Assembly: GCA_049322615.1 (NCBI GenBank)
Contig: JBMORX010000009.1
Span: 57,120 to 121,119, forward strand
Direction of reading: 5' to 3'
Length of the DNA stretch: 64,000 bases
Origin: Patescibacteria group bacterium
Lineage (GTDB): Bacteria > Patescibacteriota > Microgenomatia > CAYGWK01
Shown here: piece by piece, positions 3,171 through 57,090 of the stretch
How the letters are laid out: every line of letters starts with the position of its first letter
How positions within the stretch are numbered: position 1 is the stretch's first letter
Program-made: the position numbers and the translations under genes
Notes under the pieces: model-generated
What the model was told of the DNA's origin: nothing
The model's database searches: none
What the model saw: only the letters and a program-made list of their open reading frames with translations

Positions 3171-3354
3171 TAAACTAATTATACCACCCAGCTGAGCTGG
3201 GTATTAACCCCGCTTAGCGGGGTCAGCGAAAGATTGTGGAGAGGAACGGAAGAAATGAAGTTAGAATAAGCGCCAAAGAGGCAACAACGACAATTATCGT
3301 CCAGAGTTTTTGTTGTTTTTTAGAAATCTTCATGAATCGCTGATTAGCGCTGAT

Positions 3355-4635
3355 TTATTGCTGATTAGCGCTGATTTTCAAGAATTTTCTTTTTCCAACT
3401 TTTATAATCATTCCGTCTTTAATAGTAATTGGTAATTGGTAATTGGTAATTGGATTGCCATCTATTTCCACTGCTTTCTGTCCGACCAGCCTTTTTGCTT
3501 CGGATCTACTTGTCGCCATGCCTGTACTAACCAGAAGCCCTATTACGTTAACAGAGGATTCTGACATATTGACTACTGGGATGTTGTCAGGTATTTCTTT
3601 TCGTTGAATTTGTCTCTCAAATTTTTTTTCTGCCTGGTGGACTTCGTCTGCGGAATGATAGAGAACCGTGATGTTTCTTGCTAGAATTTTTTTAAGGTCC
3701 ATTGGATGAATATCTCCTGTTTTCCATCGACTAATGAGAGACTTAACTTGTTCAAGAGGCAAGTCTGTTGCTAATTCAAAGAAAATTGGCATCAATTCAT
3801 CAGGGATAGACATTATTTTAAAAAACATGTTTGCTGAGGAATCTAATAAGTCAACAGTATTACCAAGGCTCTTACTCATTTTTTCTTGACCATCAATTCC
3901 TGGAAGATATTTTGTTAAAATGACTTCTTCTGGACGCTGACCAAACGATTTTTGTAAGTCTCGAGTCAGGACGAAATTGAAACGTTGATCAATTCCCCCC
4001 AGCTCCACGTCTGCCTTTACAGCCACTGAGTCATACGCTTGTAAAACAGGATAGAGCATTTCATGGAAAGCCAATACTTTCCCATCCTTCACTCTTTTAG
4101 AAAAAGTTTCATGAGACATTAATTGTCCATAAGTAACTTTTGACATTAATCTAATCAATTTTTCAAGATCAAATTGGCCATACCATTCGGATTGAAGACG
4201 AATCTCGGTTTTGTCGCGATCTAAAATCTTATAAACCTGCTGGAAATATTTTTCTGCATTTCGTTGGACCTCTTCTGCGCTTAATACTTTTCTTGTTGCG
4301 CTCATACCAGAAGGGTCACCTATTCTAGCGGTGTAATCACCGATTATAAAAACGGCTACATGTCCTAATTCCTGAAATTGTTTTAATTTTCTGATTGGAA
4401 CTGCATGTCCAATATGGGCAGACCGCATAGTGGGATCAATGCCGTATTTAACTCTAAGAGGTTTTTTTTCTAGAAGACGGTCTTTTAACCCTTGTTCTGT
4501 AATTATGTCTGCAACGCCTCGTTTTAGAATTTCATTTTCTAAATCTCGCTTTTCATCTTCTTGAAAACTATTCAAACCTAATGGCTGAGTCTCTTTATTA
4601 TTGTGGGTCATTTTTTTCTTTTTGTGTTTTAACAT
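3355..4635 (-). CDS. tyrS: tyrosine--tRNA ligase with C-terminal S4-like domain
   Basis: class I HIGH (AHIGHAVP) and KMSKS (KMSKSLGN) motifs; 426 aa. Confidence 0.88.
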   Translation of the reverse strand: MLKHKKKKMTHNNKETQPLGLNSFQEDEKRDLENEILKRGVADIITEQGLKDRLLEKKPLRVKYGIDPTMRSAHIGHAVPIRKLKQFQELGHVAVFIIGDYTARIGDPSGMSATRKVLSAEEVQRNAEKYFQQVYKILDRDKTEIRLQSEWYGQFDLEKLIRLMSKVTYGQLMSHETFSKRVKDGKVLAFHEMLYPVLQAYDSVAVKADVELGGIDQRFNFVLTRDLQKSFGQRPEEVILTKYLPGIDGQEKMSKSLGNTVDLLDSSANMFFKIMSIPDELMPIFFELATDLPLEQVKSLISRWKTGDIHPMDLKKILARNITVLYHSADEVHQAEKKFERQIQRKEIPDNIPVVNMSESSVNVIGLLVSTGMATSRSEAKRLVGQKAVEIDGNPITNYQLPITIKDGMIIKVGKRKFLKISANQQ

Positions 4636-4893
4636 TTTTAACCCCCACCTATTATTATATCATTATGGGGAGGGACATTCTTCCAGCGGTAGCATTTTTG
4701 TCTCATCTCCCTGTGTTTCTACAAACTTATCTTCATAAGTTTGAATTTTCCGCAAGGATTCGAGTAATATTTTCCGTAGGCCATCTTGTATCTTTTTTTC
4801 TTTTTCCGTCTATAAGGCGATTAACATATAGTTGGAGTTTTGCATGAAGTTAATTTTTGTCTTATTTAACTTGCACTATTTCTTTCGTCTCCT

Positions 4894-9784: not shown

Positions 9785-10174
9785 TTACTTTTAATTTGAA
9801 AGACAAAAGAGTCAAATTTGCTCATTTCTTGAGTTATCCAGCTGAGTTCTGGGCACAAAATGGCTACATGATTTCTGGAGACTTGGTTTAGATGATACTG
9901 AACATATTCTACCTTCAACTAAAGAGGGAGGACCTTCAATGGCTCCAGGGGCGTCTATTTTAGCGATTAAAGACTTTGAAGGAGCACCTTTTGATATAAG
10001 GCAAAGACCCCACGACTCACTATGGCAACCAGGAACAATCTGACTTTCTACGTTTGTAGCCATGTTGGCTCATATTATAGTGTTTCTCTTAAGAAATGTC
10101 AAATCAATCAATCAAAGAATTATTTTGACCTTGCTTGTTTTACACTAGGACTAACTCTATTATATAATTCAAGT

Positions 10175-12775
10175 ATGTCTTGGAAAAGGATTTGGAAAAG
10201 AAGAATTTCCCAACTTGGGGCTTATGCTTCACCTTCTCCTTACCGGCGGATTTCTGGGATCAGATTTATCTCAAATCTTTCCCTTTTAGGCTTTCTGGCA
10301 ATTGTTATCCTGACTTTTATCACCGCTTTTCTCTTTATTTGGTACGCCAAGGATTTACCAAGACCAGATAAGATTGTCCGCCGAGAAGGATTTTCCACCA
10401 AGATTTATGATCGCCAGGAGAATCTTCTATATGATGTTTTCAGTACCCAACGCCGGACGCCGGTTGAACTTTCCGAAGTTCCTTTATATCTGAGGGAGGC
10501 GACAATTGCCATTGAAGATAAAGATTTCTATAAACATCAAGGCTTTGATCCTAAAGGTTGGCTTAGGGCAGTCTACAACATCTTTATCCATCGCAAACTT
10601 CAAGGAGGTTCAACTTTAACTCAGCAATTGGTGAAAAATGTTTTACTTTCCTCTGAACGGACCCTGACCCGGAAAATTAAAGAATTTATTTTAGCAGTCC
10701 AGATTGAGAGAAAATATACTAAAGATCAAATTTTACAAATGTATTTAAATGAAGCCCCCTATGGTGGGACAGCCTGGGGGGTTGAGGCTGCCGCCGAGGT
10801 TTATTTTGGAAAGAAAGTTTCCCAACTAACGCTTGTTGAGTCAGCTATTTTAGCCGGTCTACCGCAGCGACCATCGCTTTATTCTCCCTTTGGTCAGGAT
10901 AAAGAAAGCTATAAATGGCGAACCGAGCAGGTTTTGCGCCGAATGAGAGAAGATGGATATATCTCCCGTGAACTTGAAATTGCTGCCAAAAAAGAGATCG
11001 CTAAAGTTGAGTTTGCCCCAAAAGGAACAAGTTTTAAGGCTCCCCATTTTGTCATGTATGTTAAAAAATTACTTGAAGAACGCTACGGCGAGAGGATGGT
11101 TGAACAGGGAGGACTTAAAGTGGTGACTACTTTGGACCTCGATCTTCAAGAAAAAGCCCAAGTTGCGGTATCAGAAGAGATTACTAAAGTGGAAAAACTC
11201 CATATAACAAATGGAGCAGCCTTGGTTTTAGACCCCAAAACCGGAGAGATTCTCGCCATGGTAGGCTCAAAAAACTATGATGATCCAAATTATGATGGCA
11301 AAGTTAATGTCACTTTATCTTTGCGTCAACCTGGTTCAGCCATAAAGCCAGTTACTTATGCGACTGCTTTTAAAAAAGGCTATACTCCTTCAGCCCTTCT
11401 TATGGATGTTAAGACTTCATTTCCTGGAGGAGATAAGCCGGAGTATATTCCGGAAAATTATGATGGTAAATTTCATGGTCAGCTTCAGGTTAGATATGCT
11501 CTTGGTAGTTCAATTAATGTCCCGGCAGTTAAAATGCTGGCTCGGGTTGGACTTCGAGATATGCTTGAGCAAGCCTATGATATGGGATTTACCACTCTTG
11601 AGCCTTCCCAGGAGAACCTTTCTCGTTTAGGTTTATCGGTAACGCTGGGAGGGGGAGAAGTCAGGCTTTTGGATATGGTCTCTGCATACTCTGCTTTTGC
11701 TAATGGAGGATTGAAGGTGATGCCAACGGCGATTTTGAAGGTAACAGATCATTCGGGTAAAGTTTTAGAAGAAGGCAAACCCATTCAAGGTCGAAAGGTC
11801 TTGACCCCAGAGCAGGCATATCTTATCTCAAACATTCTTTCCGATAATGAAGCAAGATTAATTACTTTTGGTTCAAGGTCTTCTCTTTATTTTGAGAATA
11901 GACAAGTAGCGGTTAAGACCGGAACCACTAATGATAAAAAGGATAACTGGACGGTAGGTTGGACCCCAAGTGTTATTGTTGGCGTCTGGGTTGGTAATAA
12001 TGATAATTCTCAAATGAAAGAGGTTGCCTCTGGAGTCTCGGGTGCCTCGCCAATTTGGCGAAGAATTTTATCTACTGCTTTAGAAGGAAAGCCGAAAGAA
12101 GATTTTCCAGTCCCCCAAGGGATCGTCAGTGCCGAGGTAGATAGTGTTTCTGGCTACCGAGCCCATGATGGTTTTCCTTCCCGAGTCGAATATTTTATCA
12201 AAGGCACCGAGCCAACAGGCGAGGATCCGGTGCATGTCAAACTTAAGGTTTGTAAAGCTTCGGGAAAGTTGGCAACTCCAGTTGATATTGCCCGAGGTGA
12301 TTATGAGGAAAAGGAATATTTCGTCTTTAAAGAGGATGATCCGACTGTTGCTCCTGGCGGGGAAAATAAGTGGCAAAAAGGAATTGATGAGTGGTTGGCG
12401 ACTCAATCTGATTCTCGCTACCACCCACCAACTGACTATTGCGAATCGCAAAATCAGATTGAGGTAAGAATAAAAGAGCCAGAAGACCACGCTCAAGTTG
12501 GTTCAAGTTTTAGAGTTAAAGTTGAGCCAGTTTCCTTAAACGAGATTGTTTTGGTTGAGATTTATGTCAACGGAGAAAATAAAGCAAGCATGACCAGTAT
12601 CCCTTATGAGCGCGATTTTACCCTGCCTGACGGAATTTACACCATTAAAGCTCGGGTTCGTGATAGCAAAGGAAACGAAGGCGAAAGAGAAATAAAAATT
12701 GGGGTCAATGTTCCCTGGGATTGGTCTCCTTCGCCCACGCCTACTCCAACCCTTTCCCCCACCCCAACTCCGTAA
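10175..12775 (+). CDS. mrcA: class A penicillin-binding protein (transglycosylase + transpeptidase) with a C-terminal Ig-like extension and PT-rich tail
   Basis: GT51 motifs EDKDFYKHQGFD and GGSTLTQQ; TP motifs SGSAIKP, SIN and KTGTT. Start moved to ATG 10175 (MSWKRIW, TM helix follows); SPSPTPTPTLSPTPTP tail. Confidence 0.88.
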   Translation: MSWKRIWKRRISQLGAYASPSPYRRISGIRFISNLSLLGFLAIVILTFITAFLFIWYAKDLPRPDKIVRREGFSTKIYDRQENLLYDVFSTQRRTPVELSEVPLYLREATIAIEDKDFYKHQGFDPKGWLRAVYNIFIHRKLQGGSTLTQQLVKNVLLSSERTLTRKIKEFILAVQIERKYTKDQILQMYLNEAPYGGTAWGVEAAAEVYFGKKVSQLTLVESAILAGLPQRPSLYSPFGQDKESYKWRTEQVLRRMREDGYISRELEIAAKKEIAKVEFAPKGTSFKAPHFVMYVKKLLEERYGERMVEQGGLKVVTTLDLDLQEKAQVAVSEEITKVEKLHITNGAALVLDPKTGEILAMVGSKNYDDPNYDGKVNVTLSLRQPGSAIKPVTYATAFKKGYTPSALLMDVKTSFPGGDKPEYIPENYDGKFHGQLQVRYALGSSINVPAVKMLARVGLRDMLEQAYDMGFTTLEPSQENLSRLGLSVTLGGGEVRLLDMVSAYSAFANGGLKVMPTAILKVTDHSGKVLEEGKPIQGRKVLTPEQAYLISNILSDNEARLITFGSRSSLYFENRQVAVKTGTTNDKKDNWTVGWTPSVIVGVWVGNNDNSQMKEVASGVSGASPIWRRILSTALEGKPKEDFPVPQGIVSAEVDSVSGYRAHDGFPSRVEYFIKGTEPTGEDPVHVKLKVCKASGKLATPVDIARGDYEEKEYFVFKEDDPTVAPGGENKWQKGIDEWLATQSDSRYHPPTDYCESQNQIEVRIKEPEDHAQVGSSFRVKVEPVSLNEIVLVEIYVNGENKASMTSIPYERDFTLPDGIYTIKARVRDSKGNEGEREIKIGVNVPWDWSPSPTPTPTLSPTPTP

Positions 12776-12805: not shown

Positions 12806-13219
12806 TTGAGGGAAAATGGTACAATTTTTCGGCAAATATTTTATTTTAATAGAATGAGTATAAGCAAAGAACGCCTCCCAAGGTTGCCAAAAGGATTGCG
12901 TGTCTACATCCGGCAGGTTAAAGCCGGGGCACGAAAAACAGGGGAAGACTGGGGAGACAAGGCTCTTCCAGAACTTTGTCTTTCGGATCTTTTAACACTT
13001 GTCCGACGAAGTGGTCAGGGAACTCAACGTTTCAAAGAGGCGATTGCAGCTGTTTTCACTGATACCGATAATTTGGATTCATTGATGAGGCTCCTTGAGG
13101 TTTCTCAAGAATTTGGTTTTCCGACCAGCTCAAACAATCATGCTCTTTTTGAAGCCACCCAGCGGGCGGTGATAAGGCAAATAGGTGAGCTTAGGAAGAA
13201 AAAGCCTCAAGAAGCCTAA
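12806..13219 (+). CDS. hypothetical protein
   Basis: ORF track; start may be the internal Met at 12854. Confidence 0.35.
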   Translation: MRENGTIFRQIFYFNRMSISKERLPRLPKGLRVYIRQVKAGARKTGEDWGDKALPELCLSDLLTLVRRSGQGTQRFKEAIAAVFTDTDNLDSLMRLLEVSQEFGFPTSSNNHALFEATQRAVIRQIGELRKKKPQEA

Positions 13220-15330
13220 AGAGTTTTAAGAATAGCGCCAAATTTGCTTTTTACTGCGGAAATTATTTTTTCTCTTATTTTCTCTACCTCTTTATCGGTC
13301 AAAGTTTTCTTAGGGTGCTGATAGATAATTCTGAAAGTTCGAGTGTCTCCATGAATATCGATTAATTCAACACTTTGAATAATTGAACTAGACACTTTAA
13401 TTAATTGAAGTAGATCTCCAATTAAAGTCTTTGGTGGAACAACAAAAGCCAAATCCTCAACAATAGCAGGATATTTGGGAATGGGGGTAAAGGTTTTAGT
13501 TTTTTTGGCAAGTAAAATTAAAGCTTCAAAATCAAGGTCAAGAACAACCGTTTTGTTTAAAATTTCGAAATTTGCCAAAACCCGAGGGTTGACTTCACCA
13601 ATTGTTCCTAAGACATTATTGGTCGTTTCCATAACCGCTGCTTTTCCCTGGCTAAAATAGGGCTCTCTTCCTACCCAAGGCTTAAAATGGATATCCTCAA
13701 TTCCCAAATGCTCGAAAATAATCTCCGAGATGCCCTTTAAGTAGGAAAAGTCTTCCCCAGTTACCAAACAAGTAAGTCTGGTTTTTTCCAGAGGGAGATT
13801 TCCTTTTTGGGGAAGATAAACATTAGCCATCTCAAAAATTTTCACTTTGGGAAAATTGGCTTGGTTTTGGGCGACTGTTTTAAGCAGACTCTCAAGAAGG
13901 GAAATCCTTAAGTATTCAAGATCGCTGGTGAGCGGGTTTTTGAGTTTAAGATGGTCTTCGGTCTTTAGTCCAGTTTTTTGAATTGAGTCTTTTCCGATGA
14001 AGGAATAATTGTAAACTTCGGAGAAGCCTTTGCCAACAAGCACCTCTTTAATTTTATTCTCATATTCAAAGAACATCCCTATTTTTCCTTTTTGAGGTTG
14101 AGGTTGGGGTAAAAGACCGAACAAAGGATGAAGCGGAGGAATATTGCCGGGAAGTCTAAAGTAGCCATAGATTCTGGCGATTTCCTCAATTAAGTCTTCT
14201 TCGTGAGATATGTCTTGGGCGCGAAAGCTTGGAACGGAGAAAGTGAGAAGTGCCGTGCGTCGCCAGAGGCTACTCGCCGTTGCGTAGCCACGCTTTGGCG
14301 GAGCGCGGTGCCGGCGGCGCGAGAAATGAGAAGTGAGAAGTGAGAAGCCAAGAGATTCAAGGATACTGATGATTTTATTCTTTGGAATTTCGATGCCGAT
14401 GATTTTATTGACTAAATCAAGATCCAGTTTGATTTTTTTGCTTTTTTGGGGATTAGGATAAATATCTATTAATTTACTGGCGACCCTTCCTTGGCAGAGG
14501 TCTTCCATTAGCTTTACTCCTTGAGAAATGACAGGAATAATTCCTTCTAAATCAATCCCTCTTTCAAATCTCACCGCTGCCTCGGTCCGGTGAGCCAGAG
14601 CCATCGACGTCTGTCTGATTCTGACGGGATTATAAGCCTGAACGAAGAAAAGGACTCTTTTAGTGTTTTCGTCTATTTGGCTATTTTCCGCACCCATGAT
14701 ACCGCAAAGATCAATTAATCTTTCTTTTCCATCCTCGATAACGATATCTCCACCTGGAAGGGTCCGGGTAGCCCCATCGAGAGTGGTAATTTTTTCTCCT
14801 GGTCGTGACAGCCTCATAATCATTTTTGCCCCAAGAATTTTGTCGTAATCAAAAGTATGGATTGGTTGTCCGGTTTCGATCATTAAATAATTGGAAATAT
14901 CAACCACATTGGAAAGTGGTCTGATGCCAACTTTTTCTAATCTCTCAGCCATCCATTTTGGAGAAGGGGCAACCTTTACCTGGTCGATAACGACAGCAGA
15001 AAACCGAGGACAGAGAGTCTCATCTTTGATTTCTACGGAAAGATTAAATTTTGGATTTTTCATCTCTAGAGGAAGAATCTTGGGTGATGCAAATTCCGCT
15101 TTTATACCGTATCCTGAAAGAGCCGCCGCCGCTTCCCGGGCGATGCCGCGAACCGATAAACAATCATAGCGATTGACAGTTATCTCGATTTCCAAAATCT
15201 GGTCATCTTTTTCCGAATGGATTTTTTCCACTGATTGGCTACAAAGAGAAAGAACTTCAGCCACCTTCTCTGGGCTTGCTTCAGTTTTAAGAAAGTCTTT
15301 CAACCAAGAAAAAGGAATAAGAATATTCAT
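13216..15330 (-). CDS. pheT: phenylalanine--tRNA ligase beta subunit carrying an in-frame 37-aa insertion encoded by a GC-rich repeat
   Basis: B3/B4, B5 and FDX-ACB-like blocks; lies downstream of pheS; insertion at 14237-14348. Confidence 0.88.
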   Translation of the reverse strand: MNILIPFSWLKDFLKTEASPEKVAEVLSLCSQSVEKIHSEKDDQILEIEITVNRYDCLSVRGIAREAAAALSGYGIKAEFASPKILPLEMKNPKFNLSVEIKDETLCPRFSAVVIDQVKVAPSPKWMAERLEKVGIRPLSNVVDISNYLMIETGQPIHTFDYDKILGAKMIMRLSRPGEKITTLDGATRTLPGGDIVIEDGKERLIDLCGIMGAENSQIDENTKRVLFFVQAYNPVRIRQTSMALAHRTEAAVRFERGIDLEGIIPVISQGVKLMEDLCQGRVASKLIDIYPNPQKSKKIKLDLDLVNKIIGIEIPKNKIISILESLGFSLLTSHFSRRRHRAPPKRGYATASSLWRRTALLTFSVPSFRAQDISHEEDLIEEIARIYGYFRLPGNIPPLHPLFGLLPQPQPQKGKIGMFFEYENKIKEVLVGKGFSEVYNYSFIGKDSIQKTGLKTEDHLKLKNPLTSDLEYLRISLLESLLKTVAQNQANFPKVKIFEMANVYLPQKGNLPLEKTRLTCLVTGEDFSYLKGISEIIFEHLGIEDIHFKPWVGREPYFSQGKAAVMETTNNVLGTIGEVNPRVLANFEILNKTVVLDLDFEALILLAKKTKTFTPIPKYPAIVEDLAFVVPPKTLIGDLLQLIKVSSSIIQSVELIDIHGDTRTFRIIYQHPKKTLTDKEVEKIREKIISAVKSKFGAILKTL
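14237..14348. repeat. GC-rich 74-nt hairpin core flanked by GAGAAGT/GGGAAGT heptamers, in frame in pheT
   Basis: core gtgccgtgcgtcgccagaggctactcgccgttgcgtagccacgctttggcggagcgcggtgccggcggcgcgag matches 56210-56312 exactly by eye; nested palindrome GGCTAC..GTAGCC. Confidence 0.85.
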
Positions 15331-15331
15331 T

Positions 15332-16366
15332 TTAAAATTGGTTAATAAATCTTAAATCAGGTTCATACAGGGGTCTTATGTCCGAAAGATTAAGTCCTGA
15401 TTTCATGAAATATGTTCTTTCCACCCCCCAGCCAAAGGCAAACCCAGAGTATTTTTTAGGATCGATACCGCCGTTTTTGAGAACTTCGGGATGAACCATA
15501 CCCGAACCCCCTAGCTCATGCCAACCACTTTTGCAAACTTTGCAGCCTCTTCCCAAGCAAAGAGGACAGTTGATATCTACCTCAAACGATGGCTCGGTAA
15601 ATTGAAAATGGAAGGGTCTAAGTCTTATTTTCCTTTTAGGACCGAAGAAATTTATGGCGAAGTAGTCAAAGACCCCTTTTAAATGAGTAATATTAATTCC
15701 CTCATCGATGACTAACCCTTCAAACTGATGAAAGGTTGGGGTATGGGTAGCATCCCAATTAGGACGACCACAGCGACCAATATTAATCATTCTTATCGGA
15801 GGTTTAACTCTTTGCATCTCTCTAAGTTGTCCCGAAGAAGTATGGGGAGTAATCACCATTTGTCCGTATTTGGGACTGGCTTTTTCTTCAATGAAAAAAC
15901 TTTCATAGTCGTCTCTAGCGGGATGGGTTTTGGGCATATTGAGACCATCGAAAGCGTACCATTCCCATTCAACCTCTGGATAACTGACTCGAACAAAACC
16001 GATTTTCTCCAAAACAGCGGAAATTTCTCTGATGGCTTGGGTGAGAAGGTGAAGGTGTCCTTGATCTAGTTTTTCTCCTGGTGCGGTGACGTCAAGCCAT
16101 TCCCTTTCAAACTCTCCCATTTTTTCTTGGAGTTTACCCTGAGCTTGCCGAAGGGTTTCTTCGATCGCTTTTTTGGCATCATTGGCCAGCCTGCCAACGT
16201 CAACCCTTTTTTCTAAGGGAATTCTGGGAATTTCTTTAATTATTAAAGTGAGTTTTCCTTTTCTGCCGAGATAAGCCTGACGAAGTCTTTCTAATTCTTC
16301 TTGATTTTTAGCGGAAACTATTTGAGCCAAGGCTTCATTTTTAAGATTTAAAATCTTTTCTTCCAT
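15332..16366 (-). CDS. pheS: phenylalanine--tRNA ligase alpha subunit
   Basis: class II motifs including GFAFGWGVER; 344 aa. Confidence 0.9.
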   Translation of the reverse strand: MEEKILNLKNEALAQIVSAKNQEELERLRQAYLGRKGKLTLIIKEIPRIPLEKRVDVGRLANDAKKAIEETLRQAQGKLQEKMGEFEREWLDVTAPGEKLDQGHLHLLTQAIREISAVLEKIGFVRVSYPEVEWEWYAFDGLNMPKTHPARDDYESFFIEEKASPKYGQMVITPHTSSGQLREMQRVKPPIRMINIGRCGRPNWDATHTPTFHQFEGLVIDEGINITHLKGVFDYFAINFFGPKRKIRLRPFHFQFTEPSFEVDINCPLCLGRGCKVCKSGWHELGGSGMVHPEVLKNGGIDPKKYSGFAFGWGVERTYFMKSGLNLSDIRPLYEPDLRFINQF

Positions 16367-16550
16367 AAGGCTATTATATACTAAAAACCTCCCTTTTAGG
16401 GAGATTCTTTTTGCGTTTTTGCGGTCCTAAAAATGCCAAAACCAACCTCCCCTTGGGCTTAAAGTGTCCTAAAGAAAAATGACACTTTGTCGGGGTTGGT
16501 TGGTCTTCGCATTGGAAATTATTATAGCAGACTATTTGAGCCTGTCAAGA
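16367..16550 (-). promoter_or_regulatory. pheST promoter plus leader-peptide transcription attenuator
   Basis: on the minus strand: TTGACA, 16 nt, TATAAT; leaderless ORF; long hairpin with FFF codons in its loop; a second hairpin CTCCCTAAAAGGGAG followed by TTTTT just before pheS. Confidence 0.7.
16459..16512 (-). CDS. Phe-rich leader peptide MRRPTNPDKVSFFFRTL (pheM-like)
   Basis: 17 codons plus stop, three consecutive Phe codons TTT TTC TTT, sits inside the attenuator. Confidence 0.6.
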   Translation of the reverse strand: MRRPTNPDKVSFFFRTL

Positions 16551-16575
16551 GGCAATTTACTCGGCGAATCCAGGA

Positions 16576-16618
16576 TAGTCCTGGAATCCTACTTGACACA
16601 GGATAATCCTGGGTTTTA
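16576..16618. repeat. REP-like element family A (paired hairpins CCAGGATAGTCCTGG), left flank of transposase 1
   Basis: palindromic units; the same family recurs at 17278, 24046, 26245 and 57032. Confidence 0.8.
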
Positions 16619-16629
16619 GAGTAGAGTTA

Positions 16630-17286
16630 GTGGTGCAGTATTATCATCTTTATAACCGCGGTGTAGACAAACGGGTTATTTTTCTTGACGATACTGATAG
16701 ACAGCGATTTCTTGATGCTGTTAGGTTAGCAAGACTTTCGAATTCGCCCAGGCTTTCTTGGTTAAAAAGACAAATTAAAATTGGTAACATTTCTCCAACA
16801 CACCTTGAAAAATTGGAAGAAAAATATGGACCACCTCTTTTAGATATCGTTACCTACTCTCTAATGCCTAATCACTTCCACTTTCAAGTTAAGGAACTGA
16901 TAGAAGATGGAGTGAGTCAGTTTTTTCGAAAACTGGGAACAAGCTATGTAATGTATTTTAATATTAAACACGAAAGAACAGGACGATTGTTTGAATCCCA
17001 ATATAGGTCTGTGTTAATAGGAACTGACGAGCAATTAATTCACCTTTCTCGTTATATCCATACCAATCCTTACAATTCTTCCAAGAGAGACATTTCTCTT
17101 GAACAACTAAAAACTTATTCTTGGACGAGTCTCCCTGATTATCTAGGTACTCGTAAGCAGCCATTTTGTGACCCTACGGAAGTTATGTCATTTTTTAACT
17201 CACCTGAAGATTATTGGGAATTTTTAAAGGGAAATATTGATAAAGAAGAAGTTTTGCCCCCCGAGCTACTACTCGATCCAGGATAG
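16630..17286 (+). mobile_element. IS200/IS605-type HUH Y1 transposase, REP-associated (RayT-like)
   Basis: HUH motif LMPNHFHF and a downstream Tyr (RYIHTNPY); 218 aa; REP-A copies on both sides. Confidence 0.8.
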
Positions 17287-17326
17287 CCCTGGATTCGTGC
17301 CTAGTCCAGGATAGTCCTGGATTTTT
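17278..17326. repeat. REP-like element family A, right flank of transposase 1
   Basis: ccaggatagccctggattcgtgcctagtccaggatagtcctgg. Confidence 0.8.
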
Positions 17327-17654
17327 GGGTGATGGCTTTGAAGGTCTCTGGATCGGAGATTGCCAAGTCGGCGAGGATCTTACGGTCAAGGTCAATTTTT
17401 GCTTTTTTGAGACCCGAAATAAAACGACTATAAGAAATTCCTGATTCCGAAAGTCTGGCGGAAATTCTTGTTATCCAAAGTCTTCGGAAATCTCTTTTCC
17501 TTAATTTTCTGCCAGCAAAAGCATATTCACCCGCATGAAGGACCGCCTCTGAAGCCGGCTTTAAGAGTCTATGCCGAGTCATTCTATAGCCACGAGCTCG
17601 ATGTAAAATCTCTCTGTGTTTTCGGTGGCGGTATGGTCCAGTTTTAACGCGCAT
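17301..17654 (-). CDS. rplT: 50S ribosomal protein L20
   Basis: MRVKTGPYRHRKHREIL... typical L20 sequence. Confidence 0.93.
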   Translation of the reverse strand: MRVKTGPYRHRKHREILHRARGYRMTRHRLLKPASEAVLHAGEYAFAGRKLRKRDFRRLWITRISARLSESGISYSRFISGLKKAKIDLDRKILADLAISDPETFKAITQKSRTILD

Positions 17655-17655
17655 A

Positions 17656-17856
17656 TTACCTCCCGAGTAATTTCTTTATTTTCTTGGCAGTCTTTCCTTT
17701 AAAAATCTTTGTTCTTTTTAGTCTTCTTAGTCTTGATTTTTTCTTTTTTGAGCGAAGATGGCGGGCAAAAGAGGAGCCACGTAAAACCTTGCCGGTTTTG
17801 GTGACCTTAAACCGGCGACTTATCGACTTTCTTATTTTCATTTTTTTCTTTGGCAT
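17656..17856 (-). CDS. rpmI: 50S ribosomal protein L35
   Basis: MPKKKMKIRKSISRRFKVTKTGKV... Confidence 0.9.
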   Translation of the reverse strand: MPKKKMKIRKSISRRFKVTKTGKVLRGSSFARHLRSKKKKSRLRRLKRTKIFKGKTAKKIKKLLGR

Positions 17857-18397
17857 TTTTTCCTCCCTGCCTGTCGGCAGGCAGACCTTTAACTGGAGAA
17901 AAAGTCAAAACCAAATCTTTCCCAAGCCATTTTGGTTCTCCCTCGGTTTGGCAAAACCTGGAGAGTGCCTCTGTAAATTTCTTTATTAGATTATATCCGA
18001 ATTCTTTTTTCCCAAGCTGTCTCCTTGTGAATCTGACGACAACCCGAACCTTATTCCCCTCTTTCAAAAATTCTTCGGCTCTTCTTACCCTAAAGTCAAA
18101 GTCTCCCTGGGCGATAAAGGGAGTAAGCCTAATTCCTTTTATTTCTCCTCCCTTAATTCCTCTTTTTGCTTTTCTTTCTTTCTTTTCCTCAAGGTAGCGG
18201 AATTTCTTAAAATCTATTATTTTGGCAACCGGAGGCTGAGCCGTCGGAGCAATCTCAACCAGATCAACCTGTTTCTCTTTTGCTTTCTCCAGCGCTTCCG
18301 AAAGAGTTAAAATTCCAACTTGCTTTCCATTCTCATCAATTACTCTTAATTTCGGAGCCCTGATGTACTGATTAATTCTATAAAACTTTCCCGCCAC
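17807..18397 (-). CDS. infC: translation initiation factor IF-3; the start codon is uncertain and the 3' end overlaps rpmI by 50 nt
   Basis: IF3 N- and C-domain blocks (RVIDENGKQVGI, DFDFRVRRAEEFL). Confidence 0.85.
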   Translation of the reverse strand: MAGKFYRINQYIRAPKLRVIDENGKQVGILTLSEALEKAKEKQVDLVEIAPTAQPPVAKIIDFKKFRYLEEKKERKAKRGIKGGEIKGIRLTPFIAQGDFDFRVRRAEEFLKEGNKVRVVVRFTRRQLGKKEFGYNLIKKFTEALSRFCQTEGEPKWLGKDLVLTFSPVKGLPADRQGGKNAKEKNENKKVDKSPV

Positions 18398-18421
18398 CTT
18401 GTTTTTTAAATAATATCAGAG

Positions 18422-20158
18422 TTAAATCTTTTTTTCAATCTCCAAAGTAATTTTACCTAGGAATTTCTCCAGCATCATTTTCCCAAGATCTTTTTCGCCT
18501 CGAGCCCGAACAGAGATATTTTTCGCTTTCACCTCTTTTTCGCCAACAATTACCATGTACGGTACTTTTTGAAGCTCAGCATCACGAATTTTTGCCGAAG
18601 TTGTCTCATTTCGGTTATCCAACTCAACTCTTTCTCCAGCCTCCTTGAGTTTATCAGCAATTTCTTGTCCATATTTTATTTGTTTATCGGTAATGGGAAT
18701 AACCACCACTTGAACTGGTGCAAGCCAAATCGGAAAAGCCCCAGCGTAGTGCTCAATCAAAAGTCCCACCCATCTCTCTAGGGAACCAAGAGGAGCACGA
18801 TGAATTAAAACTGGTCTTTTAGTTTTACCGTCTTTATCAATATACTCAAGTTTAAATCTTTCTGGAAGCATAAAGTCAACCTGGATTGTTCCGCACTGCC
18901 ACTCCCGTCCCAAGACGTCTTTTATCATGACGTCAAGTTTTGGTCCATAGAAAGCGGCTTCGCCTTCTGCTTTTTTGGGTGTTAATCCGGCTTTCTTAAG
19001 CGCCTCTTCAATTTTTATCTCCGCCTCTTCCCAGGTTTTATCGTCTCCAAGGTATTTATCTTTATTTTTTGGGTCTCTGACGGAGAAGCGAAGATAAAAG
19101 TCTCCAATCCTGAATGCCTTAAGGAGAAACATGGTGTAATCAATTACGCCGATGAACTCCTCTACCACCTGGTCCTCCCGACAAAAGATATGGGAATCAT
19201 CTTGGGTAATGTAGCGAACCCTAATCATCCCTGATAATTCTCCAGTTTGTTCATAGCGGTAAACAGTGGCATTTTCGGCAATTCGCAATGGCAAATCCCG
19301 GTAGCTTCGAAGCTCGCTTTTATAAATCATCATATGCATTGGGCAGTTCATTGGTTTAATAAGATAATCTTCTTTATCAATCTTCATTGGTGAGTACATT
19401 TTGTCCTGGTATAAATCCCAATGACCTGAAGTAACCCAAAGAGATTTTCTCCCAATATGGGGAGAATAAACATGTTGGTATCCCCTTTTTGCCTGTTCAT
19501 CAACAATAAACTTTTCAATTTCTCGCCTGATGATTGCTCCCCTAGGAGTCCAAATTAAAAGACCAGGTCCGACCTCGTCGGGGATAATAAACAAGCCTAA
19601 TTCTTTACCTAGTTTTCGATGGTCCCTTTTTTTTGCTTCCTCAAGTTGCCAAAGATATTGGTCTAACTCTTTCTGGGTCTCAAAACAAGTCCCATAAATT
19701 CGGGTTAACATCTTATTTTTTTCCTCCCCTCGCCAGTAGGCGCCGGCCAAAGACAAAAGTTTAAGGGGGCCAATTTTTCCAGTGTTAGAAACATGAGGTC
19801 CAGCGCAAAGGTCGAGAAAATCACCAGTCTCATAGAGACTGACCTGTTTACTGTCTTCTTTTTCTAGTTCATTGATTAATTCCAGCTTATAAGGCTGATT
19901 CTTAAAAAGTTTTCTCGCTTCGGAAATCGAAATCATTCTCTTTTTGAATGGGACTCTTGATACAGCGATATGTACCATTGCATCAACGATTTTCTCTAAA
20001 TCTTTTTCCGTAATTGGTTTTTCAAAATCGAAATCATAGTAGAAACCATCCTCAATTGCCGGGCCAATGCCTAGTTTTGTCCCAGGATAAAGTTTAAGAA
20101 CCGCCGCCGCCAAAACATGGCTTGCCGAATGACGCATGGTTTCTAGGTTTTTATTCAT
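18422..20158 (-). CDS. thrS: threonine--tRNA ligase
   Basis: class II ThrRS blocks (RDHRKLGKELGLF, catalytic core, anticodon-binding domain). Start moved to ATG 20158 (MNKNLET), which leaves room for the leader. Confidence 0.88.
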   Translation of the reverse strand: MNKNLETMRHSASHVLAAAVLKLYPGTKLGIGPAIEDGFYYDFDFEKPITEKDLEKIVDAMVHIAVSRVPFKKRMISISEARKLFKNQPYKLELINELEKEDSKQVSLYETGDFLDLCAGPHVSNTGKIGPLKLLSLAGAYWRGEEKNKMLTRIYGTCFETQKELDQYLWQLEEAKKRDHRKLGKELGLFIIPDEVGPGLLIWTPRGAIIRREIEKFIVDEQAKRGYQHVYSPHIGRKSLWVTSGHWDLYQDKMYSPMKIDKEDYLIKPMNCPMHMMIYKSELRSYRDLPLRIAENATVYRYEQTGELSGMIRVRYITQDDSHIFCREDQVVEEFIGVIDYTMFLLKAFRIGDFYLRFSVRDPKNKDKYLGDDKTWEEAEIKIEEALKKAGLTPKKAEGEAAFYGPKLDVMIKDVLGREWQCGTIQVDFMLPERFKLEYIDKDGKTKRPVLIHRAPLGSLERWVGLLIEHYAGAFPIWLAPVQVVVIPITDKQIKYGQEIADKLKEAGERVELDNRNETTSAKIRDAELQKVPYMVIVGEKEVKAKNISVRARGEKDLGKMMLEKFLGKITLEIEKKI

Positions 20159-20335
20159 GGTTTGATTATAGCACCAATAACAATTAAAAAACCAACCTTT
20201 CGGCTGGTTGTCGATTAGTTTTAACCCCACTAACAAACCAGCCGTTTTAGACGCTGGTAGTTGTAGTTACAGTTAAAACCGCAATCATTATTTTGAATTA
20301 TACTAATAAAAATTTTATTGTCAAGTGGATGGCAT
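20159..20335 (-). promoter_or_regulatory. thrS promoter plus leader-peptide transcription attenuator
   Basis: minus strand: TTGACA, 16 nt, TATAAT. Hairpin ACCAGC/GCTGGT versus a perfect 8-bp alternative GGCTGGTT/AACCAGCC versus a terminator CAACC..GGTTG followed by TTTTTT. Confidence 0.7.
20247..20288 (-). CDS. Thr-rich leader peptide MIAVLTVTTTTSV
   Basis: 5 Thr codons among 13; the ORF ends inside the first attenuator hairpin. Confidence 0.6.
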   Translation of the reverse strand: MIAVLTVTTTTSV

Positions 20336-20379
20336 AGGACTCGAACCTATGACCTTTTCGATGTCAACGAAGCGCTCTT
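20326..20379 (-). pseudogene. tRNA 3' fragment (anticodon arm GAC, T arm, acceptor 3' strand plus CCA); 3' half of a tRNA split by an insertion
   Basis: T arm ATAGG-TTCGAGT-CCTAT, anticodon loop TTGACAT, no matching 5' acceptor strand adjacent. Confidence 0.6.
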
Positions 20380-20508
20380 CACCCGACTAACTTTTGCAGG
20401 TTGATTTTAGAAAGCCCAATTTAAACAAATAAAAATTTGTTGTTTTAGAGCTTCTTCTTAATTAACTCATTGGCAAAAGTTTGACGGGTAAACCAACTGA
20501 GCTCTTAG

Positions 20509-20582
20509 TGGGCGCATCAGGACTTGAACCTGAGACCTTTACTATGTCAAAGTAACGCTCTAGCCACCTGAGCTATGCGCCC
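20509..20582 (-). tRNA. tRNA-Val(GAC), no CCA encoded
   Basis: manual cloverleaf: acceptor GGGCGCA/TGCGCCC, anticodon loop TTGACAT, T loop TTCAAGT. Confidence 0.85.
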
Positions 20583-23935: not shown

Positions 23936-24853
23936 ATGAGACTGTCAAGAAAAGAATTAAGAAAGAGAGCACAGAAAGCTTGGAAACTTCTAAATCCTTG
24001 TCGGGTTTGTCCGAGGATTTGCGGGATCAACCGTCAGAGGCCAAATTCCAGGATAGTCCTGGAATCGTGCCTAGCCCAGGATAGTCCTGGATTTTGTCGG
24101 ATGGGGGTAAAACCACGGATAAGTTCCTATCATGCCCATTTTGGCGAAGAATCTTGCCTTGTCGGTACAAATGGTTCAGGAACAATTTTCTTTTCCTCTT
24201 GCAATCTTGCCTGTGTTTTTTGTCAAAATTGGGAAATTTCCCAATTGAGAGAAGGAGAGGAAGTGGAAACTGAGGATTTAGCTGAGATGATGGTTTTTCT
24301 TCAAGAGCGTGGTTGTCATAATATAAATCTTGTCTCCCCTACTATTTGGGTGCCCCAGATTCTGAAGGCTTTGGTGGTTGCAATTGATCAAGGATTACAC
24401 CTCCCATTGGTTTATAACACTGGTGGATACGATTCAGTTGAGACCCTAAAACTTCTTGATGGGGTTATCGATATTTATATGCCAGATATTAAATATTCAG
24501 ATTCAAAAATCGCCCTGAAATATTCCCTGGTTCCAAACTATTGGAAGGTGGTTCAGAAAGCAGTTGCCGAAATGCATCGCCAGATTGGAGATTTGGTGAT
24601 TAGTGACCAGGGACTAGCGACTAGGGGTTTGTTAATCAGGCATTTGGTTTTACCAGAAGGTTTAGGGGGAACAGAAAAAGTGATGAAATTTATCGCCTCT
24701 CTCTCCAAAAATTCTTATGTCAATATTATGGACCAATACTATCCAACCAATAAAGCCCATCTTTATCCGGAAATCAATCGAAAAATTACTCCCGAAGAAT
24801 ATCATAAAGCGGTTGAAACAGCTAAAGGGTATGGTCTGCACCGATTTAATTAA
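23936..24853 (+). CDS. radical SAM enzyme (PflX / AmmeMemoRadiSam-like) with an in-frame REP-A insertion near the N-terminus
   Basis: CNLACVFCQNW CxxxCxxC motif; N-terminal CxxCPRxC..GFC pattern interrupted by 15 aa (NSRIVLESCLAQDSP) encoded by REP-A at 24046-24092. Confidence 0.75.
   Translation: MRLSRKELRKRAQKAWKLLNPCRVCPRICGINRQRPNSRIVLESCLAQDSPGFCRMGVKPRISSYHAHFGEESCLVGTNGSGTIFFSSCNLACVFCQNWEISQLREGEEVETEDLAEMMVFLQERGCHNINLVSPTIWVPQILKALVVAIDQGLHLPLVYNTGGYDSVETLKLLDGVIDIYMPDIKYSDSKIALKYSLVPNYWKVVQKAVAEMHRQIGDLVISDQGLATRGLLIRHLVLPEGLGGTEKVMKFIASLSKNSYVNIMDQYYPTNKAHLYPEINRKITPEEYHKAVETAKGYGLHRFN
24046..24092. repeat. REP-like element family A copy in frame inside the radical SAM CDS
   Basis: ccaggatagtcctggaatcgtgcctagcccaggatagtcctgg. 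Confidence 0.8.
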
Positions 24854-26244: not shown

Positions 26245-26287
26245 CCAGGATAGTCCTGGAATCGTGCCTAACCCAGGATAGTCCTGG
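26245..26287. repeat. REP-like element family A copy, followed by 3 tandem copies of CTGGATTTGCA
   Basis: ccaggatagtcctggaatcgtgcctaacccaggatagtcctgg. Confidence 0.8.
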
Positions 26288-57031: not shown

Positions 57032-57090
57032 TCCAGGACTCTGATTCCAGGACTATCCTGGAACAGGCACGAATCCAGGACTATCCTGGA
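57032..57090. repeat. three REP-A hairpin units (inverted orientation) in the divergent uvrB-lexA promoter region
   Basis: ccaggactctga / ttccaggactatcctggaa / tccaggactatcctgga. Confidence 0.8.

Follow-up and report, generated by a model that had tools for sequence, protein, structure and literature searches.

Bacteria of the Candidate Phyla Radiation (CPR), or Patescibacteria, cannot make amino acids and depend on a host, and to our knowledge almost nothing is known about how they regulate their genes. How might such a cell adjust an aminoacyl-tRNA synthetase to the supply of its amino acid? The question is posed by a stretch of 64,000 nucleotides (nt) from a CPR bacterium of the Microgenomates group (assembly GCA_049322615.1, contig JBMORX010000009.1, positions 57,120 to 121,119), called the window throughout, in which a consensus promoter, a short phenylalanine-rich open reading frame (ORF) and an intrinsic terminator are placed in front of pheS and pheT. 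The closest PheS homologues (80-60% identity) all belong to Microgenomates or Patescibacteria metagenome-assembled genomes. A first-pass annotation had read the element as a pheM-type attenuator with an essentially leaderless leader peptide. Our analysis finds the arrangement of promoter, ORF and terminator to be beyond chance, and we consider it likely that the leader is a ribosome-mediated transcription attenuator, responsive to Phe through charged tRNA-Phe, which would control read-through from the strong promoter into pheST.

Architecture of the pheS leader

The leader lies on the minus strand, on which all of its coordinates are given (Table 1). Its promoter is present as first described, with TTGACA, 16 nt and TATAAT, and the ATG, placed within ~10 nt by the first-pass annotation, follows the -10 hexamer by 8 nt; the predicted 5' untranslated region is 0-2 nt long. 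Perfect TTGACA-N16-18-TATAAT promoters occur three times in the 64-kb window, versus 0.09 expected. In two of these three cases an aminoacyl-tRNA synthetase gene lies downstream, and the promoter leads into a short ORF with many codons for the cognate amino acid. At pheS this ORF encodes the Phe-rich peptide that had been proposed, with three consecutive Phe codons as candidate sensing codons.

Folding of the 154-nt RNA from 16520 to 16367 with RNAfold gave -52.5 kcal/mol and z = -5.7 relative to dinucleotide shuffles, none of which (0/200) was as stable. The predicted fold shows the Phe codons in the loop of an inner hairpin nested in a long stem, as had been suggested. The long stem is there, but its extent had been drawn too short: AUGCGAAGACCAACC..CCCC (16512-16492) pairs with GGGG.GGUUGGUUUUGGCAU (16452-16433), enclosing the inner hairpin, and the pairing reaches the AUG itself (AUGC.GAAGACCAACC..CCCC with GGGG.GGUUGGUUUU.GGCAU).

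The 3' strand of this stem, region 2, has a second potential partner. Its segment GGGGAGGUU (16452-16444) shows complementarity to the terminator 5' strand, region 3, in agreement with the alternative pairing first put forward. The calculated duplex of -13.4 kcal/mol is stronger than those with 27 unrelated terminator-like hairpins found elsewhere in the window. When 35 such hairpins from the window are ranked as partners of region 2, the pheS leader terminator comes first. The terminator was correctly placed just before pheS and ends in a U run, 19 nt (16385-16367) ahead of the pheS ATG at 16366. From sequence and comparison, three mutually exclusive predicted pairings emerge: region 1, which comprises ORF codons 1-7, with region 2; region 2 with region 3; and region 3 with region 4, which together with the U run makes up the terminator.

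Homologous leaders in Microgenomates

To follow the element across relatives, 80 pheS loci were fetched from species-representative genomes, and metagenomes were scanned for the conserved 3' stem strand, which yielded 72 hits, about half of them chance matches and the rest real. A covariance model was built from the leaders, and the four nearest PheS relatives were fetched via the PheS protein, independently of the leader; three of these four carry it. The first-pass annotation had made its claim depend on Phe-codon runs upstream of pheS in related genomes, and such runs are present in 29 distinct leaders of a first class, A, in Microgenomates genomes and metagenomes (several analyses cover 25 of them), and in five leaders of a second class, B.

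Class-A leaders combine TTGACA, about 17 nt and a -10 hexamer, often with TG, with an AUG 6-8 nt further on; this AUG, replaced by GUG once, stands at the conserved spacing in 29 of 29 members. The reading frame opens with AUGCRARAACYAACC, encoding M-R/Q-x-P/L-T, and continues for 15-26 codons with 2-6 Phe, as in MRKPTNSHCLYFFFR, MRRPTNPCGLFFFYFRVSL, MREPTNSYRFFFFNLR and MRIPTNTQTAFFRFFFT, up to a stop codon 2-26 nt before the G-rich region 2. The 3' strand reads GGGGAGGUUGGUUUUGGCRU, a consensus biased by the retrieval of part of the set with a pattern in which this strand was fixed. An inner hairpin was found in all 25 class-A members checked one by one, with a stem sequence that differs by lineage and the Phe codons in or next to the loop. 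A scan likewise found a hairpin and U run downstream of 25/25, the assigned stem differing from that of RNAfold in L109 and L141. In 23 of the 25, pheS follows in the same orientation within 2.5 kb, usually within 130-260 nt.

Class-B leaders have no promoter of their own. Their homologous Phe-rich ORFs (MRLFFFTSFYFRIS; MKNFFSISFYFRMK; MKNFFSTSFCFRIK; MIMFFTTFCFRIR; MKTFSFSGFCFRIN) begin directly after the rplT stop codon, the core UUUURCUUUAGA is common to both classes, and the successive regions read UCUCCAC / GUGGAGA / UCUCCAC / GGAGAG+U. Three-state folding predicts pairing 1:2 without a ribosome, pairing 2:3 when a ribosome is stalled at Phe, and masking of region 2 when it stands at the stop codon; in these models class-B leaders such as MKNFFSTSFCFRIK behave as textbook attenuators.

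The leader is far from universal. About 70 of the 80 species-representative Microgenomates loci have no such leader ORF; in some of them rplT is followed by a plain terminator and then by a leaderless promoter for pheS. In the rplT-pheS interval, L002, L020, L127 and L158, the last being the fourth nearest PheS relative, look like evolutionary intermediates. The C-terminal tail of L20 in L002 and L020 ends in ..GF(S/T)FTS.., with two Phe codons, and there is overlap between this tail and the 5' strand of a structure in competition with the terminator; in L127, region 2 and the terminator are retained and the ORF is absent.

Further variation concerns the space between leader and gene. In L155 a T-box-like AAUUAAGGUGGUACCGUGG with a terminator (about 3270-3620) follows the Phe leader and precedes a two-gene insert ahead of pheS, which encodes a 707-amino-acid protein of unassigned family and a DIT1_PvcA-family protein. 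L006 has a T-box-like element directly before pheS (AAUUAAGGUGGUACCGUGG, then a terminator, with a GGUGGUACCGUG motif) that gave no match in an Rfam scan at gathering threshold. Other genes are inserted between leader terminator and pheS in L159, L119, L124, L150 and L055, those of L159 (569-1504) being a 65-amino-acid ORF and an AlaX-like tRNA_SAD protein. For some inserted ORFs the start lies 7 nt beyond the GGAGG in the 3' strand of the terminator, whose hairpin would thus mask their ribosome-binding site as well.

Alternative pairings across the family

The first-pass annotation had expected the alternative pairings to covary, and here the two pairings of region 2 differ. Pairing 2:3 is kept despite great variety in the terminator: the 25 class-A leaders have 20 distinct terminator 5' strands, among them CUCCC, CUCUCC, CCUCC, ACCUUC, CCCUCCG and CUCGCC, and all are complementary to region 2. 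The 2:3 duplexes mostly have calculated energies of -8 to -13 kcal/mol, compared with a mean of -3.3 for the 27 unrelated terminators, and are similar in size to the terminator hairpins. The lower part of the long stem, on the other hand, hardly covaries. Its 14 pairs are 97-100% canonical across the 29 sequences, and the sole compensatory pair is a change from A-U to U-A in L031 and L041. In the pairing partner of the AUG, A and G alternate, yet the start codon itself stays AUG, with GUG as the sole exception. In the upper stem (CCCC:GGGG in the window) and the inner hairpin, sequences vary and pairing is kept. The covariance-search alignment was contaminated by two reverse-strand matches and was left out of the pair counts; MAFFT/RNAalifold recovered the outer stem only and misaligned the inner hairpin, which was hence checked per sequence.

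The switch itself was modelled by folding transcripts that end before region 4, in place of full-length equilibrium folding. Without a ribosome, none of the 25 leaders forms pairing 2:3: region 1 holds region 2, and region 3 is free, a state in which the terminator would be expected to form. When the 5' strand is made unavailable, pairing 2:3 is predicted in all 25, and a 30-nt footprint of a stalled ribosome on a Phe codon is by itself enough in 17 of 25.

A parallel leader before thrS

The strongest independent support comes from the same window. The thrS gene is preceded by its own consensus promoter and a leaderless ORF rich in Thr (Table 1), the only other unit in the window with a consensus promoter, an ORF of <30 codons 8 nt after the -10 hexamer and a terminator. 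Alternative pairings are again predicted (CGGCUGGUU / AACCAGCCG / GGUUGGUU+U6), with the Thr codons in the strand that pairs with the antiterminator strand, and the fold has z = -4.0. After the terminator, TGcTATAAT stands 6 nt before the likely true thrS ATG. The thrS leader is absent from two relatives, L153 and L154. Two synthetase genes with leaderless ORFs for their own amino acids are hard to explain except by translation-coupled sensing.

Upstream of tyrS (4635-3355), a further short ORF, MAYGKYYSNPCGKFKLMKISL, has 3 Tyr in its first 7 codons (4640-4784, minus). A CCCUCCCC/GGUGGGGG hairpin after it would sequester the Shine-Dalgarno-like sequence of tyrS and has TGaTATAAT in its loop. 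This candidate Tyr leader was not used as evidence: it has no clear promoter, the ORF is not conserved in L153 or L154, and it may be due to chance.

Translation and leaderless initiation

Is the ORF read, and is it leaderless? In the 25 class-A sequences, 96 Phe codons fall in the AUG frame, compared with 64 and 57 in the other two, and frame 0 has the most, or ties for the most, in 22 of 25, in roughly ten lineages with different insertions between AUG and U run. This excess suggests a translated ORF but does not decide the matter, since a run of U reads as Phe in all three frames.

The leaderless character was claimed from the window sequence and gains from the comparison. The gap between -10 hexamer and AUG is 6-8 nt in the 25 listed class-A members, and in 405 Microgenomates genes -10-like (TG)TAnnWT hexamers peak 6-7 nt before the ATG, especially those with the TG extension; several window genes show TGnTAnAAT-N6-7-ATG. 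This lineage-wide peak suggests that leaderless mRNAs are widespread in Microgenomates. Neither leader-peptide attenuation nor leaderless mRNAs turned up for CPR bacteria in our literature searches.

Proposed mechanism and rival explanations

The evidence is best accommodated by the following scheme. The promoter would start transcription at, or 1-2 nt from, the AUG. With no ribosome, or with a ribosome that has finished and gone, region 1 would clamp region 2, the terminator would form and a leader RNA of ~130 nt would be released. When charged tRNA-Phe is scarce, a ribosome would stall on codons 12-14 and keep the CCCC of region 1 off region 2, and the AUG-proximal strand may be held off by a queued second ribosome or by steric exclusion. 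Region 2 could then pair through GGGGAGGUU with AAUCUCCCU before region 4 is made, and RNA polymerase would read through into pheST. The inner hairpin is probably a pause or timing element. A weaker, -10-only promoter at the pheS ATG (P2) probably supplies basal leaderless pheS expression independent of the leader. On top of this basal level, read-through from the far stronger promoter upstream would be supplied by the attenuator in a regulated way.

Several observations weigh against this scheme. Behind the terminator, pheS has its own leaderless-type -10 element and no Shine-Dalgarno sequence, so that a gain from read-through is unproven; many internal genes of the window genome likewise have no Shine-Dalgarno sequence. 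Of 23 family members, 18 have a TAnnnT motif 5-9 nt ahead of the pheS ATG, extended by TG in 10 of them, and a -10-like element is found at this place also in relatives without the leader and before thrS (20165-20173). The raw number of short Phe-rich ORFs upstream of pheS (ATG start, at least 3 Phe in any 6 codons) is not significant, with 10 on the forward and 8 on the reverse strand in loci of the 80-locus set, and the case therefore rests on the conserved family, not on raw Phe enrichment. Within that family some relatives retain just 2 Phe codons, L158 keeps promoter and terminator and has lost the ORF, and in L155 the leader is separated from pheS by the T-box-regulated two-gene insert. 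The lower stem is conserved rather than covarying, with changes mostly from A-U to G-U. Since the AUG is base-paired in the finished RNA, a ribosome must load during a short co-transcriptional window.

The folding results add two further difficulties. The alternative folds proposed at the outset are predicted with the 5' strand blocked, but in the window the stalled footprint alone is insufficient: its sequence is not among the 17 of 25, because the 14-bp lower stem behind the ribosome can re-form, and prediction of the antiterminator requires that the 5' strand with the AUG be kept unpaired too. An extra assumption is therefore needed, namely a second ribosome, steric exclusion or a pseudoknot. 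The Phe run lies about 10-12 codons from the AUG, a distance at which a second ribosome could just fit on the start codon while the first is stalled; such a ribosome, or a pseudoknotted 2:3 pairing with the lower stem intact, could meet the need. In full-length equilibrium folding, moreover, the terminator stays in the minimum-energy fold in every modelled ribosome state. The same is true of the terminator in classical attenuators; the switch must therefore be kinetic, and equilibrium folding is uninformative.

Could the leader instead be an independent small transcription unit, yielding a stable structured small RNA and/or a small peptide, with a terminator that mainly insulates the downstream unit? 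pheS would then be expressed from its own leaderless promoter, and read-through would be non-regulatory or would interfere with that promoter. The -10-like element before pheS, its presence in leader-free relatives and the missing Shine-Dalgarno sequence suit this account; so do a 5' end locked in a 14-bp stem, as befits a stable RNA, a terminator that is never displaced from the minimum-energy fold, and the persistence of the leader in L155. We nevertheless regard it as unlikely. The element keeps its linkage and orientation to pheS in all but two of the 25 distinct members, its Phe codons are enriched in the AUG frame, and region 2 matches 20 different terminator strands by complementarity, a property for which a plain terminator would have no use. 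Class-B homologues, furthermore, are promoterless and lie inside the rplT-pheS transcript, and a parallel Thr-rich unit stands before thrS. The display of Phe codons in a hairpin loop could also point to an RNA switch of the T-box or operator type, in which tRNA-Phe, through its anticodon, or a protein binds the UUU/UUC loop and the ORF is incidental. The modest frame-0 excess would agree with this, region 2 UGGU could in principle pair with an ACCA 3' end, and T-box-like GGUGGUACCGUG motifs are present in L006 and L155. Such a switch appears improbable to us in view of the absence of any T-box or other Rfam match in the leader, even at E <= 10, and of a Stem I platform, a conserved specifier position and a T-box bulge. 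Further points against it are an AUG that sits where transcription is predicted to start, its spacing conserved throughout the family, and a stop codon that always shortly precedes region 2; class-B and thrS leaders hold their cognate codons in a stem strand, as translation-based sensing expects. A by-product of the neighbouring IS200-like element with its palindromes, whose transposase gene abuts the promoter, or a chance hairpin in an AT-rich spacer, is scarcely credible: homologous leaders stand at dozens of transposase-free loci, directly after rplT, the palindromic motif is not part of the leader, the fold has z = -5.7, and the perfect promoter is far beyond chance. An origin from the mobile element was accordingly rejected, the leader being conserved without the transposase.

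The ribosome-mediated attenuator thus remains the reading that we prefer, and it might take a particular form. Tentatively, Microgenomates could use a distinct 'one-shot' attenuation for pheS and thrS, built on a leaderless ORF whose 5'-terminal AUG belongs to one strand of the anti-antiterminator clamp. To report tRNA charging, a 70S ribosome would have to bind the nascent 5' end ahead of the transcription of this clamp. The decision may be made by the stalled lead ribosome, possibly with a second one queued on the AUG, or by a pseudoknotted antiterminator, and the regulated strong promoter may stand in tandem with a constitutive leaderless one placed right at the start codon of the synthetase.

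The locus and its neighbours

The leader sits in a run of minus-strand genes that is interrupted between rplT and the leader promoter by a plus-strand transposase gene (Table 1).

Table 1. Positions in the window of the pheS and thrS leaders and of the surrounding genes.
Feature	Position	Strand	Remarks
Leader promoter P1, -35 hexamer TTGACA	16548-16543	minus	invariant in 25/25 class-A leaders listed
P1, extended -10 TGcTATAAT	16529-16521	minus	16-nt spacer; 12/12 to consensus, TG extension
Leader ORF MRRPTNPDKVSFFFRTL (17 codons) + TAA	16512-16459	minus	ATG 16512-16510, stop 16461-16459
Three Phe codons TTT TTC TTT	16479-16471	minus	proposed sensing codons, in inner-hairpin loop
Region 1, AUGCGAAGACCAACCAACCCC	16512-16492	minus	5' strand of long stem, includes start codon; proposed anti-antiterminator
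Inner hairpin AAAGUGUC/GACACUUU	16488-16461	minus	U-rich loop; encloses Phe codons
Region 2, GGGGAGGUUGGUUUUGGCAU	16452-16433	minus	partner of region 1 or, via GGGGAGGUU, of terminator 5' strand
Intrinsic terminator	16406-16383	minus	9-bp stem + UUUUU
Region 3, AAUCUCCCU	16406-16398	minus	followed by loop AAA
Region 4, AGGGAGGUU	16394-16386	minus	followed by U run 16387-16383
P2, -10-like TATAAT	16378-16373	minus	6 nt before pheS ATG
pheS	16366-15332	minus	downstream of attenuator
pheT	15330-13216	minus	downstream of attenuator; pheS+pheT span 13216..16366
IS200-like Y1 transposase (RAYT-like, Pfam Y1_Tnp)	16630-17286	plus	between rplT and pheS leader
rplT	17654-17301	minus	
rpmI	17856-17656	minus	
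infC	18397-17807	minus	
thrS (reading frame)	20236-18422	minus	likely true start ATG 20158
thrS leader promoter	TTGACA 20324-19, TATAAT 20302-20297	minus	16-nt spacer
thrS leader ORF MIAVLTVTTTTSV (5 Thr)	ATG 20288	minus	leaderless, 8 nt after -10; unit 20190-20324
thrS leader terminator AACCAGCC-GAAA-GGUUGGUU+U6	20209-20190	minus	

The transposase gene is flanked by doublets of the palindrome CCAGGATAGTCCTGG with 28-nt spacing (16570-16612 and 17278-17320), and three further doublets lie at 24048-24090, 26245-26287 and 57047-57089. In all, the window holds 10 copies of the palindrome versus 0.07 expected. Transposase and doublets look like a system of repetitive extragenic palindromes (REP) and a REP-associated tyrosine transposase (RAYT) in a CPR genome. 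Just upstream of the thrS leader promoter, at 20330-20400 on the minus strand, there is a tRNA-like remnant that comprises a T arm, the 3' strand of an acceptor and an anticodon loop of Val type (UUGACAU), called by neither ARAGORN nor Rfam; an intact tRNA-Val(GAC) is located at 20508-20582. The third perfect promoter of the window, TTGACA-17-TATAAT at 10074-10102 on the minus strand, points away from a penicillin-binding protein (PBP) gene (10022-12775, +) and faces a 123-amino-acid ORF (9784-9413) ~290 nt downstream, in antisense overlap with the annotated start of the PBP gene.

Comparison with known systems

Searches of Rfam place the leader in none of its families. A cmscan of 15800-18600 with 4227 families at E <= 10 returned noise only, a gathering-threshold scan of the whole window found tRNAs only, scans of 40 related loci gave no known family, and there is neither a match to RF00230 at E <= 10 nor a T-box 14-mer in 16367-16520. 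Membership in the pheM, Phe_leader or T-box families was rejected, as no covariance model matched.

T-box riboswitches are the usual regulators of aminoacyl-tRNA synthetase genes in Firmicutes. The window leader shares with them the class of target, the competition between terminator and antiterminator and the presentation of a cognate codon in a loop, and some Microgenomates (L006, L155) have T-box-like motifs ahead of pheS or of genes close to it. It differs in having no T-box sequence, Stem I, K-turn or UGGN bulge, and the sensor is most likely the translating ribosome rather than an RNA that binds tRNA directly.

Leader-peptide attenuators have also been predicted before synthetase genes in Streptomyces, at trpS and leuS (PMC1262725), which resemble the present case in their target. 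Leaderless polycysteine short ORFs of mycobacteria have been described as attenuating operonic expression (10.1101/834739). As predicted for the window, the sensing ORF lies at the 5' end of the transcript (5'-AUG/GUG), encodes a peptide rich in a single amino acid and governs the operon genes that follow. Phylum, amino acid and sequences are different from those of the mycobacterial and actinobacterial leaders, and, unlike the mycobacterial ones, the window leader combines an intrinsic terminator and its U run with a clamp of 14 bp over the AUG.

Ribosome-mediated attenuation is a known mechanism, of which we found no report for CPR or Microgenomates bacteria; the leaderless ORF, the AUG in the clamp and the tandem leaderless promoters might, if confirmed, justify calling the leader a variant. 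A recent perspective notes that the regulation of the cell cycle in CPR bacteria and what governs their differentiation remain unknown (PMC11665869). A direct ribosomal sensor of the charging of tRNA-Phe, and apparently also of tRNA-Thr, with the cognate synthetase genes as its output, would give such an organism a concrete regulatory circuit that lends itself to testing. It would mean that classical attenuation arose or persists outside Proteobacteria and Actinobacteria, that it coexists with T-box-like elements in one lineage, and that it does so where leaderless initiation is apparently common. Should the more tentative 'one-shot' form prove true, CPR bacteria would have their first defined cis-regulatory mechanism, and attenuators would gain a new architectural class. 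The family of 29 sequences and its covariance model could be used for RNA family databases and for the annotation of CPR genomes.

The comparison that the first-pass annotation had drawn is with pheM of Escherichia coli, a leader peptide abundant in Phe that belongs to the attenuator of pheST (PMC5371410). As a statement of homology it does not hold, for there is no detectable similarity in sequence or covariance model, and the host is a CPR bacterium. The window ORF is leaderless and has no Shine-Dalgarno sequence, its start codon is part of the anti-antiterminator stem, its Phe codons lie in the loop of an inner hairpin, and a second promoter-like element follows the terminator. As a statement of regulatory logic, however, the comparison stands. 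The genes are the same and so is their neighbourhood (thrS-infC-rpmI-rplT-leader-pheS-pheT), and in both a short Phe-rich ORF precedes an intrinsic terminator with competing upstream pairings, where stalling at Phe codons favours, or in the window is predicted to favour, read-through.

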